From Candidatus Altimarinota bacterium (GTDB taxonomy: Bacteria > Patescibacteriota > Gracilibacteria > Absconditabacterales > Absconditicoccaceae), in contig WFMP01000074.1 of the NCBI GenBank assembly GCA_015489035.1, forward strand, positions 1 through 24,180: DNA of 24,180 bases, in the 5' to 3' direction. Shown piece after piece: positions 6,474 through 24,019 of this stretch. A program made the position numbers and the translations under genes. The notes below the pieces were generated by a model that made no database searches, had not been told where the DNA came from, and was given only the letters and a program-made list of their open reading frames with translations. Each line of letters starts with the position of its first letter. Within the stretch, counting starts at the first letter, position 1.

Positions 6474-8621
6474 TTATAATCCAAAATTTTTAATAACTAC
6501 TCCAGGAAAATACCATTGAATAATTTGTTTATAATTTAATCATTTTCTAGCAAGATATTCTGCTCATTTTCAGCTTAACCCTACTCCATGTCAGTAAAAT
6601 TTATTACATTTTCACAAATCTATGTTATTTACCAAATATGGAGTATCCACCCAACCAAATTTCTGTGCAGCTGACAATGTAAAGCCAGGAGAACAACTAA
6701 AATAAGGTAAAATAGGAATATAATTATCATAAAGTAAATATTGATTTTTTGTAGCCTTAAGTGCCTTCGACCATAACTTTGAAGTTTTCTCATATCCAGC
6801 TCCGACATATTTTTGAAATATTCTTGGATCATCTATAGCATTATAAACAGCTTGTTTAGGTATTGAAGGTTGAATATTTCACTTATCCAAATAAAATAAT
6901 AAATAAGTTTTTGCTAATAAAGCCATTACTTTTATTTTTTCAAAAGGCATCTGATCATCACTTTCTGCAATTCAAGCAAGATAATCATTTATTTTCAACA
7001 TATTAATTACAATAAATTTCCTTTCATATTTTCATCACATTCCTTTTATCAATCCTTTTTTAATAGCAATATTTCATTTAAAACTATTCCAAGGAATTCA
7101 AGCATAAGACTTTCTATGGTAATTTTTAAATATTATTATTCAACCATTACTTAAGATAGTTAAAGAATGAGTAGTTATAGATTTATTTTTAAACCAAACT
7201 ATTAAATTAGAAAATTTATCTACTTCAAAAGATTTTAAATTTTTAAAAATTCATTTACTTGTAATTATTGTACAATTATTTGTACATTCTATGTTATAAT
7301 ATTTTAATTTAGACAATTCATAAAGCAATACTTTCACAGGTTTTTTTATTAAAGTAGAAATCTGATTAAAATAAATTTTATGTTTAATCTTTATTATTTT
7401 ATGGGTATTTACTTTTCATCATAGATATTTCAAAGCTTTTTGTTTCATTAAATATCTTATATTATCCATAAAAATAGGATAAACTTGTATTTTATAATTA
7501 TATTTTGATGAAGATGCAGTTATCCATTTATTTCAAAAAACAAAATATCATCTCCTCTGTAAAGTAATTGTATTTCATTTACAAGTAATTTCTAATCAAA
7601 CTATATTTGAATCACATTTTTGTAAATCTTTTACATTTTTTAATTTAATTACAATTTTATTAGTTAATGAAAATTTTTTTCAAATATAAATAGTTTTATT
7701 TTGTTTAACAAAAGATATATTTTTAATTCTTGGGTTTTCTATTCTTGATTTATAATTTTTTAATCTTAAATAAACTTGTCTTCTAATATAAGGCAAATCA
7801 GCATACAAATATTTACCTGGACAATCAGTATGTCCAGTGTCTCTATGTCAAACTATAGAAAAATGTGTAACATTTTGAATATAAGGAGGTTTCTGGAAAG
7901 ATTCTTTATGATAAACAACTTTATTGTATGGATTAATATTATATTTTCTGGCCAAAGCTGTTGATAATTTTATTAATGAAGCTAACTGCTTTTTTGTAGG
8001 TTTTTCTATATTAAAATTTCAAATCAGAGCTATTCAAATAGAAGGAGGATTATTATAAGAAGAATTCGCACCTACAACTCAAGCTCAACCTTGCCTTCAT
8101 TCGTAAATATTTCAAAATTGATCTATTAAAAAATTATATCAAATATCTCACCATTTCCTAATAATCGCATGATAATAATAAACTCACCTAATATATTTTT
8201 CTATTGCTTGTTTAGTCTTAAATCTCTTATAATCAGCAGCAGTATGATGTATTATTATATCTGTTTTATGGAATTTATATCACAAAGGCCACCAAAGTTT
8301 CTTTCAATTTAAATTATAAACTACTTTATTAAGCTTAATTTGATTTTTCCAATGAGATAACATATACTTTTCTCTATCTTTTTCTATAGTCCTTTCTTTT
8401 AGATTTCGCCAATATTTTTTAGGATCTTCGGTTATCCTTTTATCTAAATCTTTATTTTGTTTAATAATATCTTTATAAATTTTAAAATCTGAAAATAAAT
8501 ACTTATTATTTGCACCCCATTCCTGTCTTGTAATAATTTTTATTCATGGAAGATTCCGCTGAATTGCAAAAGTTGAGGATACGAACAAAAAAAATAACAA
8601 ACAACCTAATAATTTTTTCAT
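6474..8621 (-). CDS. Secreted multidomain peptidoglycan hydrolase: Amidase_2/PGRP-like Zn amidase + SpoIID/LytB-like domain, 715 aa
   Basis: One frame, ATG 8621 to TAA 6474. Signal peptide MKKLLGCLLFFLFVSSTFA. Amidase motifs IITRQEWGA, IIIHHTA, WGDIGYNFLID.FGNIYEGR, VGHRD...TDCPG. SpoIID motifs INDYLAGIAE, KVMALLAKTY, FQKYVG, PYFSCSPGFT, YGHGVGLSGKGAEYLARKGLNYKQIIQWYFPG. Confidence 0.85.
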
Positions 8622-9149: not shown

Positions 9150-9226
9150 GGTGGTTGTAGTTCAACTGGCAGAGCCCTGGTTTGTGGTACCAGTCGTTGC
9201 GGGTTCAAGTCCCGTCAGCCACCCCA
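9150..9226 (+). tRNA. tRNA-His(GTG), G-1 and CCA encoded
   Basis: Acceptor GTGGTTG/CAGCCAC, G-1:C73, anticodon arm CTGGT-TTGTGGT-ACCAG, T-loop TTCAAGT. Confidence 0.95.
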
Positions 9227-9238
9227 TTTAAGTTATTT

Positions 9239-9312
9239 GGCACCGTACCAGAGTGGTCTAATGGAGGGGCCTGCAAAGCCTTCTTTCACCGGTTCGAATC
9301 CGGTCGGTGCCT
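9239..9312 (+). tRNA. tRNA-Cys(GCA)
   Basis: Acceptor GGCACCG/CGGTGCC, U73, anticodon arm GGGGC-CTGCAAA-GCCTT, T arm ACCGG-TTCGAAT-CCGGT. Confidence 0.93.
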
Positions 9313-9385: not shown

Positions 9386-9856
9386 CTATTTAACTACATG
9401 TTGAGCATAAATAGAAATTACCCACATAGAGATTAACCAACTTACTCATATTGTAATAATTGCTATTATAGCCATTTTAATAAATTTTCCTCATTTTTTA
9501 ATTCATTCATCAGTTTTCCCAGTAAATACCATAGAGAAACCATAAACAAGGATCATAAAAGCTATAAAAGCTAAAATACTAAGAAAATAATTTATAAATT
9601 TTGAAATATAATAAATGGCAGGATTACCTTCACTACGAAAATCAGTTCATAAAAAACTTTTAGATAACTGATCTAAAGTAGAATTTTTATTGTTTGGAAT
9701 TATAATATCTTTCATAGAATCATTACTATTAATTGAAACTGTTATATGATGACTATCTGTAGATAAAGTGTATGGAAAATTTGCAGCATTAACTATAAAT
9801 AAACTTAAAAATAATCATAAAAAACTAACAATAAATATTTTTATTAAATTACTCAT
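9386..9856 (-). CDS. CPR-type pilin-like membrane protein (TrbC/VirB2-like), 156 aa
   Basis: Signal-like N-terminus ending VNA. C-terminal two-helix hairpin INYFLSILAFIAFMILVYGFSMVFTGKTDEGIKKGGKFIKMAIIAIITIGVSWLI. Confidence 0.65.
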
Positions 9857-10308
9857 GTATTTAAATTTACAAAATAAAATATTAAATTAATAAAAAGATA
9901 AGAAGCTCAAATTCAAACCAGAGCTAATATATAATTTCTTAAATTTACAAAAGCTTCTTTTTTCTTTCATTCATCTCATGCAGATGTTATCATAACAATT
10001 CCATCTTTTATAATTAAAATAATAACTATCAATCATAAAAATCATAAAAAATAATTTATCCATAAACTTAAATAATCAATAAAATCTTTTTTATGATCAT
10101 TTGTTCATGCCGCTATTCATTGCACTCATTGAACAGCTGAGGTTGTTCAATTTCTTAATGGATTATTTATATCATTTGATTTAATAACATTAGTTTGATT
10201 TTGTGTATAAATAGTTTGTGTATCACTATCCCACATATTATTAGCAAATACAAAAATACCAATAAAATTAATAAATGCCAGCAAAAATATAAATAAAGAT
10301 TTTTTCAT
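9844..10308 (-). CDS. CPR-type pilin-like membrane protein (TrbC/VirB2-like), 154 aa
   Basis: Signal-like N-terminus ending VFA. INYFLGFLGLIVIILIIKDGIVMITSAGDEGKKKEAFVNLRNYILALVGIGASYLFINLI. Overlaps the next gene by 13 nt. Confidence 0.7.
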
Positions 10309-11031: not shown

Positions 11032-14856
<3,825 letters not shown>

Positions 14857-14881
14857 AAATATATCATTTTAAAGTATAAAA

Positions 14882-18436
<3,555 letters not shown>

Positions 18437-22875: not shown

Positions 22876-22949
22876 TGGGCCAGGTAGGACTCGAACCTAC
22901 GACCCAACGGTTATGAGCCGTTTGCTCTAACCAACTGAGCTACTAGCCC
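22876..22949 (-). tRNA. tRNA-Ile2(CAT) (lysidine type; elongator Met not excluded)
   Basis: GGGCTAG/CTGGCCC acceptor, anticodon arm AACGG-CTCATAA-CCGTT; body resembles Bacillus tRNA-Ile(CAU) as recalled. Confidence 0.85.
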
Positions 22950-22954
22950 TTAAA

Positions 22955-23031
22955 TGGTGGGTAATACAGGACTCGAACCTGTGACCCTCTGCTTGTAAGG
23001 CAGATGCTCTCGCCAACTGAGCTAATTACCC
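22955..23031 (-). tRNA. tRNA-Val(TAC), CCA encoded
   Basis: GGGTAAT/ATTACCC, arm TCTGC-CTTACAA-GCAGA. Confidence 0.96.
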
Positions 23032-23040
23032 ATATAAATA

Positions 23041-23112
23041 CAACCCTACGGGGAATCGAACCCCGATCTTCAGGATGAAAACCTGATATCCTAGCCGTTA
23101 GACGATAGGGTC
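23041..23112 (-). tRNA. tRNA-Glu(TTC)
   Basis: GACCCTA/TAGGGTT, arm TCAGG-TTTTCAT-CCTGA. Confidence 0.94.
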
Positions 23113-23120
23113 AAATGACT

Positions 23121-23192
23121 AGCCAGATGCGAGACTTGAACTCGCGACCCTTCGCTTACAAGGCGAATGCTCTACCACTGAGCTAATCTGGC
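23121..23192 (-). tRNA. tRNA-Thr(TGT)
   Basis: GCCAGAT/ATCTGGC, arm TTCGC-CTTGTAA-GCGAA. Confidence 0.95.
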
Positions 23193-23199
23193 AAAATGA

Positions 23200-23276
23200 T
23201 GGCGGGACTGACGAGACTCGAACTCGCGACCTCCTGCGTGACAGGCAGGCGTTCTAGCCAGCTGAACTACAGCCCC
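23200..23276 (-). tRNA. tRNA-Asp(GTC), CCA encoded
   Basis: GGGGCTG/CAGTCCC, G73, arm CCTGC-CTGTCAC-GCAGG. Confidence 0.96.
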
Positions 23277-23289
23277 ACAAAAGCGAAAG

Positions 23290-23547
23290 TTAAGAAACCT
23301 TCTTTGCTAATCTAGATTTTTTTCTACTTGCTGTTTGTTTTTTTAATAATCATTGTCTAACAGCTTTATCTATTTTTGAATATGTATCTGATAATATTAC
23401 ATTTAATTCTTTAGATTCTGTACCATCATCAACATTCTTCAAAAAAGATTTAACACTTTTTTTCATTGCTAACTTCACAACAAGATTAACTTCGTAATTT
23501 TTTAAAGCTCTTTTTGCTGCTTTTTTAGCAGATTTTTTAATAGCCAT
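23290..23547 (-). CDS. rpsT: 30S ribosomal protein bS20, 85 aa
   Basis: MAIKKSAKKAAKRALKNYEVN...MKKSVK...YSKIDKAVRQ-G(TGA)-LLKKQTASRKKSRLAKKVS. The conserved C-terminal helix appears only if TGA is read through. Confidence 0.95.
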
Positions 23548-23582
23548 TTAGTATATTTCAAATATTAAATTATTTAATCAAA

Positions 23583-23655
23583 CTCCGAGAGAGGGACTCG
23601 AACCCACGACCCAGTGGTTAACAGCCACTTGCTCTACCAGCTGAGCTATCTCGGA
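23583..23655 (-). tRNA. tRNA-Asn(GTT)
   Basis: TCCGAGA/TCTCGGA (U1:A72), G73, arm AGTGG-CTGTTAA-CCACT. Confidence 0.95.
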
Positions 23656-23665
23656 ATACCCCTGT

Positions 23666-23693
23666 AGTATAAAAAATACAAAGAAAAAATCAA
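23666..23693 (-). promoter_or_regulatory. Candidate internal promoter upstream of tRNA-Asn/rpsT
   Basis: Minus strand TTGATT (23693-23688), 16-nt spacer, TATACT (23671-23666), in the longest tRNA-tRNA spacer of the array. Confidence 0.45.
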
Positions 23694-23699
23694 GTCAAA

Positions 23700-23781
23700 T
23701 ACCGAGAGTGGGACTTGAACCCACACACTATAAAGCACCTGGTTCTAAGCCAGACGTGTCTACCAATTCCACCACCTCGGC
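23700..23781 (-). tRNA. tRNA-Leu(TAG)
   Basis: GCCGAGG/TCTCGGT, arm TCTGG-CTTAGAA-CCAGG, long variable arm. Confidence 0.94.
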
Positions 23782-23785
23782 ACAA

Positions 23786-23857
23786 TTGCGGGGGTAGGAA
23801 TTGAACCTACGATCTCCGGGTTATGAGCCCAGCGAGATACCACTTCTCCACCCCGCA
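23786..23857 (-). tRNA. Initiator tRNA-fMet(CAT)
   Basis: Anticodon stem with three consecutive G-C pairs (GGG-CTCATAA-CCC) and A11:U24; acceptor TGCGGGG/CCCCGCA. Confidence 0.93.
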
Positions 23858-23866
23858 TTAAACGAA

Positions 23867-23939
23867 CTGGGATGGTAGGACTCGAACCTACGAATACTGG
23901 ATTCAAAGTCCAGTGCCTTACCAGCTTGGCGACATCCCA
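23867..23939 (-). tRNA. tRNA-Gln(TTG)
   Basis: TGGGATG/CATCCCA (U1:A72), arm CTGGA-CTTTGAA-TCCAG. Confidence 0.95.
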
Positions 23940-23945
23940 ACAAAA

Positions 23946-24019
23946 AGCGGATGACGAGACTCGAACTCGCAACATTCTGCTTGGAAGGCAGATATTCTAG
24001 CCAATTGAACTACATCCGC
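23946..24019 (-). tRNA. tRNA-Gly(TCC)
   Basis: GCGGATG/CATCCGC, U73, arm TCTGC-CTTCCAA-GCAGA. Confidence 0.96.

Follow-up and report, generated by a model that had tools for sequence, protein, structure and literature searches.

A predicted secreted amidase–SpoIID fusion protein, read with TGA as glycine, in a bacterium of the order Absconditabacterales

Introduction

The closest described relatives of the system presented here are SpoIID proteins that act on peptidoglycan together with a separate amidase. SpoIID of Clostridioides difficile was inactive on peptidoglycan without the amidase SpoIIP, and on intact Gram-positive sacculi SpoIID needs prior amidase action (PMC6221140). SpoIID of Waddlia chondrophila is septal and digests peptidoglycan jointly with AmiA, and the Waddlia and Bacillus subtilis proteins also released anhydro-muropeptides from Gram-negative sacculi (PMC6635528). 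Here we describe a gene that joins the two domains in one polypeptide. It is located on contig WFMP01000074.1 of Candidatus Altimarinota bacterium (order Absconditabacterales; assembly GCA_015489035.1), positions 1 to 24,180, and this whole stretch of 24,180 nucleotides is referred to as the window.

A first-pass annotation of the window had proposed a secreted amidase-SpoIID/LytB fusion, on the premise that SpoIID enzymes cleave only peptide-denuded glycan. This premise is too strong in view of the activity on Gram-negative sacculi, whereas the need for an amidase on intact Gram-positive sacculi stands. Both domains and their co-operation are already well known. What sets the locus apart is that two wall-degrading steps, which are split over two proteins in other bacteria, are found here in one predicted secreted chain.

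Results

Domain architecture and catalytic positions

The fusion protein consists of a putative signal peptide, an Amidase_2 domain, an immunoglobulin (Ig)-like beta-sandwich and a SpoIID/LytB fold (Table 1). An AlphaFold2 model built on 50 homologues had a mean predicted local distance difference test score (pLDDT) of 89.8, with low values only at residues 1-21 and 292-303. From its sequence, we infer an export signal at the N-terminus of the protein. The family consensus reads SxxFA followed by WNLPGI, and the model places a helix of low confidence in this region. A lipoprotein signal (LLGC, residues 4-7) was considered and rejected by reasoning from its position, as the Cys lies too near the N-terminus and the family keeps SxxFA instead.

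Pfam PF01510 recognized the amidase domain between residues 122 and 270 with E 7e-20 and 72.1 bits (cut-off 26), and pLDDT was mostly >85 across the domain. In structure comparisons, the model of residues 26 to 283 matched PGRP-SD (2rkq), a peptidoglycan recognition protein (PGRP), with a VIA Z of 19.2 and a root mean square deviation (rmsd) of 2.1 Å, 162 of the 169 residues of 2rkq being aligned. The clostridial endolysin LysC (6ssc) was matched with Z 17.6 and T7 lysozyme with Z 12.5. Just 162 residues of this model align to PGRPs; the domain exceeds its Pfam match and holds a helical insertion (Table 1). The insertion is poorly conserved in sequence; regulation or occlusion of the active site is conceivable, and inhibitory helices occur in division amidases of another family.

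A Cys rather than a Ser at the zinc ligand position is the mark of catalytic PGRPs. In a HMMER alignment to Drosophila PGRP-LB (1oht), H125, Y162, H259, T265 and C267 of the fusion protein stood opposite H42, Y78, H152, T158 and C160. Of these, Y78 and C160 are mutated in the PDB entries 7nsz and 7nsy, as stated in the titles of the entries.

For the C-terminal part, Pfam PF08486 (SpoIID) was detected at residues 533-631 (E 4e-8, 34.3 bits against a cut-off of 23). The NCBIfam model TIGR02669 (SpoIID_LytB) scored 78.2 bits, just below its cut-off of 83.3, and the sporulation equivalog TIGR02870 stayed far below its own (62.5 bits against 234.75). The model of residues 422 to 714 was superimposed on C. 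difficile SpoIID (5i1t_A, chain residues 70 to 354) with a VIA Z of 18.8 and an rmsd of 2.3 Å over 186 aligned residues; Foldseek gave E 5.9e-11, and 4rwr was matched with Z 14.2. In the phmmer alignment to 5txu/5i1t, E553 was found opposite E101 of C. difficile SpoIID, a catalytic residue whose mutation leaves the protein inactive and blocks sporulation (PMC6221140). When B. anthracis SpoIID (4rwr) was aligned instead, a shift by two residues placed the template Glu opposite D555; of the two positions, only E553 is invariant. Across 50 aligned family members with 35-75% identity, the amidase positions, E553, H678, D659 and D668 were all invariant. Judged by these conserved positions, both domains look catalytically competent.

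These results bear out the first-pass annotation in its core. It had assigned a PGRP/T7-lysozyme-type amidase with the full zinc ligand set, for which the Pfam match, the fold and the aligned, invariant H125, H259 and C267 speak, and a SpoIID/LytB domain with the catalytic-position Glu and GHGVG, which agrees with the Pfam match, the fold and the position of E553. Its proposal that the fusion joins an amidase step and a glycan-cleaving step likewise holds, with both domains real and their catalytic positions invariant in the 50 members. Its motif coordinates were right for GHRD (7839-7850), CPG (7815-7823) and the Glu (6963-6965), whereas the span 8244-8249 given for HHTA covers HH only, the full motif lying at 8238-8249. 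The unassigned linker of ~200 amino acids (aa) that it had placed between the two domains has to be shortened, and about half of it belongs to the N-terminal part of the SpoIID fold. The SpoIID fold starts at residue ~422, which leaves only residues ~284-421 for an ordered Ig-like sandwich and a helix.

Folded alone with 14 orthologues, this middle region reached a pLDDT of 80 overall and >90 in its core, and C336 of its Cys pair was invariant in 14 sequences. A disordered linker is ruled out, as the region is ordered except for residues 292-303. Foldseek returned only weak matches to Ig-like or VirB9 N-terminal domains (best E 5e-4, template modeling score ≤0.45), and the model is consistent with a generic Ig-like sandwich, for which neither a specific family nor a new fold is claimed. 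Within the order, the stretch aligned to residues 288-428 ranges from 85 to 181 aa. Longer relatives have recognizable Ig-like modules at this point of the chain, namely N_BRCA1_IG, CARDB, Big_7, Big_13 and CarboxypepD_reg.

Table 1. Features of the fusion gene and its predicted product (positions refer to the window).
Feature	Residues	Position	Strand	Remarks
Whole coding sequence		6474..8621	-	715 aa + stop, TGA=Gly (33 TGA; 33/50 Gly codons)
Signal peptide, Sec-type, predicted	1-19	8565..8621	-	MKK, 15 hydrophobic residues, TFA|IQ
PGRP/T7-lysozyme-type Amidase_2 fold	25-283	7773..8549	-	Structure comparison and Pfam PF01510
Helical insertion within amidase domain	~46-98	8328..8486	-	Helices 47-62 and 67-90; consensus mostly x
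First Zn ligand position (= PGRP-LB H42)	H125	8247..8249	-
Catalytic Tyr position (= PGRP-LB Y78)	Y162	8136..8138	-
Second and third Zn ligand positions and Thr position (= PGRP-LB H152, T158, C160)	H259...T265...C267	7821..7847	-
Ig-like beta-sandwich, seven strands, then helix	~305-400	7422..7709	-	Cys pair C336, C347
SpoIID/LytB fold	422-714	6480..7358	-	Structure comparison and Pfam PF08486
SpoIID catalytic Glu position of YLAGIAE (= C. difficile E101)	E553	6963..6965	-
GHGVG, conserved C-terminal SpoIID signature	677-681	6579..6593	-	H678, V680 invariant

Reading of TGA as glycine

Under translation table 11, the region yields only open reading frame (ORF) pieces of ≤80 aa, whereas table 25 gives a single frame of 715 aa with 33 in-frame TGA codons. 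The remaining genes of the window are likewise open only when TGA is read through, and the window is AT-rich, with a G+C content of ~0.19-0.31 over most of its length. TGA supplies the glycines of DIGYN, GHRD and GHGVG. At the conserved TGA positions, 49 aligned homologues have only G or W; the W residues are clustered in some of the deposited sequences, and the 13 homologues without W at any TGA position mostly show G in conserved columns. Because of this pattern in the homologous sequences, TGA=Gly is the correct reading for the fusion gene. A pseudogene, or a set of standard-code fragments, is ruled out, as the 33 TGA codons sit where the homologues have Gly.

Distribution within Patescibacteria

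In a large protein collection, 1252 of the 8000 scored candidates matched the fusion protein at E ≤1e-3. The best 120 relatives are 529-798 aa long, and all 120 carry Amidase_2; a precomputed SpoIID label is present on 34 of them, so that the architecture is easily missed in annotation. All 14 organism-named matches were from Absconditabacteria/SR1, Gracilibacteria, Peribacteria, Vampirococcus lugosii or 'uncultured bacterium (gcode 4)'. Some deposited translations have Trp at TGA positions, at up to 28 of the 33 (P0005), and such translations probably contribute to the missing SpoIID labels: P0005, P0006 and P0007 fit this explanation, P0003 and P0004 do not.

Within the same order, the fusion was found in 32/41 genomes and 21/23 genera as a single TGA-containing frame of ~600-800 aa. 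Outside the order but within the class, both halves were located in one open frame (756-1212 aa) in at least 22 of 24 genomes, and at least five other Patescibacteria families had both halves in frames of 1150-1414 aa (at least 14 genomes). Many further families showed a frame of just one of the two types, SpoIID or amidase. In the surveys of the class and of the other families, often two candidates were scored per genome, and the counts hold among the matches listed; one genome flagged as unpublished (G154) is counted there, as are G526, G543 and G573 in the Actinomycetota sample and G623 in the Chloroflexota sample described below, and no specific example rests on them. A search for split or shorter forms gave 46 matches, mostly fragments on short contigs, and the only apparently real SpoIID-only forms on long contigs were two Peribacteria proteins (P0123, 375 aa; P0125, 391 aa). 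With the homologue P0083 as query, both Pfam families were present in each of the three nearest named clusters of the ESM Atlas, with SpoIID on 21%, 99% and 100% of the members. Their commonest phylum labels were Absconditibacteriota, Portnoyibacteriota and Altimarinota.

The same pairing outside the phylum

In four other phyla, 51-122 genomes each were sampled with the Patescibacteria-derived profile, which is weak on distant SpoIID domains. Within this scope no same-frame fusion was detected in 295 genomes (Bacillota 122, Actinomycetota 61, Chloroflexota 61, Cyanobacteriota 51), the result for Bacillota applying to the matches listed (150 of 326). The first-pass annotation had named a common housekeeping division enzyme of free-living phyla as the case that would speak against its proposal; as a fusion the architecture was not seen in the 295 sampled genomes, among the matches listed, although the pairing of the two enzymes does exist elsewhere. 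In six Actinomycetota genomes (G532, G533, G535, G563, G577, G578), amidase and SpoIID genes lie within a few kb of each other. For G577, G563 and G532 it was verified that an Amidase_2 gene is followed directly by a SpoIID gene on the same strand, and in G577 and G532 both genes of the pair carry SLH domains, which anchor proteins to the producer's own wall.

Among 30 longer matches, 21 carry both families. Five of the 21 were checked with Pfam and showed the order amidase-SpoIID in three cases and the reverse order in two (P0182, P0203). P0203, a cluster member of P0187, is named 'SpoIID/LytB domain-containing protein [Anaerolineae bacterium]' from a metagenome-assembled genome; no reverse-order fusion was seen in the 61 sampled Chloroflexota genomes. 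The reverse-order fusion is probably an independent event. Three gene arrangements, namely fused, fused in reverse and neighboring, thus indicate that the two families work together, which argues that their pairing is functional and not accidental.

Two further observations were made in these samples. Small genomes of the cyanobacterial phylum (1.6-2.2 Mb; e.g. G697, G709, G712, G730) encode compact SpoIID proteins in open frames of ~290-335 aa, which match the SpoIID half of the profile unusually well. With E 1e-17 to 1e-24, they score above the Bacillota genes for sporulation SpoIID. Two small genomes of the Actinomycetota sample have SpoIID halves in frames of 1298 aa (G585:C40:3961-4608; E 3e-35 to the Patescibacteria profile) and 1355 aa (G574:C15:34679-35215; E 1.5e-14). 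The amidase half was reported in neither frame, and G585 has a separate amidase frame on another contig.

Wall genes of the source genome and gene neighborhood

In the genome from which the window stems (88.6% complete), Amidase_2 and SpoIID are each matched once, in either case by the fusion gene; no Amidase_3 was found in it and hence no partner of the Amidase_3 type. Transpeptidases were matched four times, twice in TGA-containing frames, and a single FtsW/RodA gene carries 32 TGA codons. Because penicillin-binding transpeptidases and FtsW/RodA are encoded in TGA-containing frames, the cell can be taken to make its own wall. M23, transpeptidase and SLT matches in long frames free of TGA, in contrast to the remaining genome, were also encountered, on the short contigs C110, C71 and C135 (loci L007, L009/L011 and L003), and these contigs may be contaminants (stated contamination 4.64%).

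The neighbors of the fusion gene are apt, a resolvase-like nuclease and tRNA genes. Two adjacent small membrane proteins of 156 and 154 aa are encoded at 9386-10308 on the minus strand, just upstream of tRNA-His and tRNA-Cys (9151-9312), and each give a weak T4SS_pilin match that falls short of the Pfam cut-off (E 5e-4 and 1.5e-4). Two very long ORFs occupy 11032-18436 on the minus strand, one of 1274 aa with 64 TGA codons and one of 1184 aa with 46; in size they compare with the beta' and beta subunits of RNA polymerase. A cluster of ten tRNA genes at 22876-24019, likewise on the minus strand, coincides with a rise of the G+C content to 0.42 at the end of the window.

Discussion

A candidate two-step hydrolase of the producer's own wall

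With respect to the molecule itself, we are fairly confident that the gene encodes an exported bifunctional amidase and SpoIID hydrolase. With respect to its role, we lean, with reserve, towards a secreted single-chain enzyme that carries out two steps of peptidoglycan hydrolysis on the wall of its producer; in this reading we infer that the protein is secreted, in which order the two reactions run, how the glycan is cut and that the target is the producer's wall. After Sec export and cleavage of the signal peptide, the N-terminal zinc amidase would cut the bond between N-acetylmuramic acid (MurNAc) and L-Ala and so remove the stem peptides. The C-terminal SpoIID domain, one Ig-like spacer away, would then cut the bared glycan, by analogy as a lytic transglycosylase or a muramidase. 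Fusion would ensure a 1:1 stoichiometry and co-location, for which other systems depend on the scaffold SpoIIM or on separate wall anchors. The target would be the Gram-positive-type wall of the producer, in the splitting of daughter cells and in wall turnover or remodeling, and the enzyme would be the main, though not indispensable, autolysin of a genome without another detectable amidase. The published SpoIID systems act on the wall of the producer (PMC6635528, PMC6221140). The wall-synthesis genes of the source genome and the core-like distribution of the fusion gene across the class speak for the same reading. The pairing with SLH anchors outside the phylum also tilts the reading towards an own-wall function.

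Several results weigh against an own-wall role, or at any rate against an essential one. The fusion gene was not found in any of the eight genomes of genus g324, which belongs to the same family as the source (G649, G652, G653, G673, G676, G677, G682, G685), nor in the single genome of g334 (G665), all of which are 93-100% complete. A recheck of four g324 genomes and the g334 genome with family models revealed no Amidase_2, SpoIID or Amidase_3, and FtsW/RodA is kept in 9/9 of the g324 and g334 genomes. The loss of the gene is thus not accompanied by a loss of wall synthesis, and this test for co-loss did not favor the own-wall reading. Because the gene is absent while FtsW/RodA is kept, close relatives that bear a wall can do without the enzyme. 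Other bacteria often stay viable when they lose amidases, and the loss in g324 therefore weakens an essential division enzyme more than an own-wall autolysin. In the rechecked genomes, the wall-bearing cells of g324 and g334 would have to separate without any known MurNAc-L-Ala amidase. Further points on the same side are that the Pfam and NCBIfam scan of the fusion protein gave no recognized wall-anchoring domain (SLH, LysM or such) and that the middle module is poorly conserved and variable in length, as expected for surface or host-interaction proteins. How the domains lie relative to one another is uncertain in the model (predicted template modeling score 0.59). The gene neighborhood gives no help, and in 23/23 loci of the order the flanking genes of the window were absent within ~1.5 kb of the orthologue. 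The authors of the Vampirococcus genome, moreover, propose degradation of the host wall as the task of its secreted peptidoglycan hydrolases (PMC8080830).

Some of these points lend themselves to a host-directed function, in which an epibiotic or predatory cell would release the fusion where it attaches. The enzyme would there open the host peptidoglycan in one pass, first stripping the peptides and then cutting the glycan, and so give access to the cytoplasm. We regard this as possible but doubtful. The predicted export signal without a recognized wall anchor would suit a released enzyme, and the predator Vampirococcus lugosii is among the relatives, with the orthologue P0023 at 43% identity. 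Two secreted peptidoglycan hydrolases of this organism have been assigned to degradation of the host wall (PMC8080830), and P0023 may be one of the two. The accessory-like pattern, with g324 and g334 lacking the gene while wall synthesis is kept, fits as well, as do the variable Ig-like middle and the lack of synteny with wall or division genes. Against it, the pairing also occurs in lineages outside Patescibacteria, there with SLH domains, and the fusion is single-copy and near-universal in the whole class and in several other Patescibacteria families. No other amidase was found in the source cell, which has to split its own wall as well, and the outer membrane of a Gram-negative host would presumably have to be crossed first. 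An extended version, in which the fusion is a wall-opening tool of epibiotic or predatory Patescibacteria at the contact site, with the fast-evolving Ig-like middle setting reach or host specificity and the g324 loss reflecting a change of host or lifestyle, seems unlikely to us. If true, it would offer direct molecular access to the way in which these ultrasmall cells enter their hosts.

Two other explanations concern the activity rather than the target. The SpoIID/LytB domain might not cleave glycan at all and instead bind peptidoglycan and stimulate or target the amidase, much as LytB of B. subtilis is a modifier of the LytC amidase. The SpoIID/LytB family includes so-called amidase enhancers, JGI names for fragments of the family read 'peptidoglycan hydrolase-like amidase', the TIGR02669 score is just under its cut-off (78.2 against 83.3), and the SpoIID domain is short, with 186 of the 285 residues of 5i1t aligned. 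However, the invariance of E553, the GHGVG histidine, D659 and D668 in 50 sequences would hardly be expected of a module that only binds, and mutation of the equivalent E101 abolishes SpoIID activity (PMC6221140), so that we consider such an enhancer improbable. Scavenging, that is, digestion of free or foreign wall fragments from host or dead cells for amino sugars and peptides, would agree with a predicted secreted and unanchored protein that is dispensable in some relatives, in a group that is described as metabolically reduced (PMC8080830). The neighbors are unrelated housekeeping genes, nothing specific favors scavenging over the other readings, and we hold it to be very improbable.

Novelty and comparison with known systems

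In the literature found, which was partly judged by title and abstract, no report linked SpoIID with Absconditabacteria or Patescibacteria or described an amidase-SpoIID fusion. Apparently, neither the single-chain secreted form nor its spread in Patescibacteria nor the reverse-order fusion has been described before. Little is known about division, wall remodeling and host breach in Patescibacteria, and the fusion is a compact candidate for either process. The three couplings, in this order, in reverse order and as neighboring anchored genes, provide comparative evidence for amidase-SpoIID co-operation well beyond sporulation.

In the SpoIID-SpoIIP(-SpoIIM) system of Bacillus and Clostridioides, the amidase strips the stem peptides and SpoIID then cuts the bared glycan (PMC6221140), which is the order proposed for the fusion; the fusion shares the SpoIID fold (Z 18.8 to 5i1t) and retains the Glu at the catalytic position. 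The differences are considerable. SpoIIDMP consists of two or three separate membrane-anchored proteins in a sporulation programme, whereas the fusion is one predicted secreted chain in a Patescibacteria lineage that is not known to sporulate. Its amidase is of the Amidase_2/PGRP type and not a SpoIIP, and the zinc motif of C. difficile SpoIID (C140/H145) has no counterpart in its aligned stretch. SpoIID and AmiA of W. chondrophila resemble the fusion in that a SpoIID homologue works with an amidase at the cell's own septum in a non-sporulating bacterium with a reduced genome (PMC6635528). There, however, the proteins are separate, the bacterium is Gram-negative and intracellular, and localization and activity have been measured.

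On the amidase side, catalytic PGRPs (PGRP-LB, 1oht/7nsx), T7 lysozyme (1lba) and LysC (6ssc) have the fold and the His/His/Cys, Tyr and Thr positions in common with the fusion, which differs from them by the helical insertion of ~50-60 aa and by two further modules. In B. subtilis, the LytC amidase likewise acts on the wall of its own cell with a partner that has a SpoIID/LytB domain, LytB, but the two are separate proteins, and LytC is an Amidase_3 enzyme with wall-binding repeats. The Actinomycetota pairs (G577, G563, G532) combine the same families in the same order, but in two unfused genes of ~590-775 aa each. The reverse-order fusions P0203 and P0182 come close in that both catalytic families are contained in one chain with Ig-like modules around them. 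They differ in running from SpoIID to Amidase_2, in their length of 1242-1446 aa and in their CarboxypepD_reg and Big_7 modules, to which P0182 adds a dockerin.

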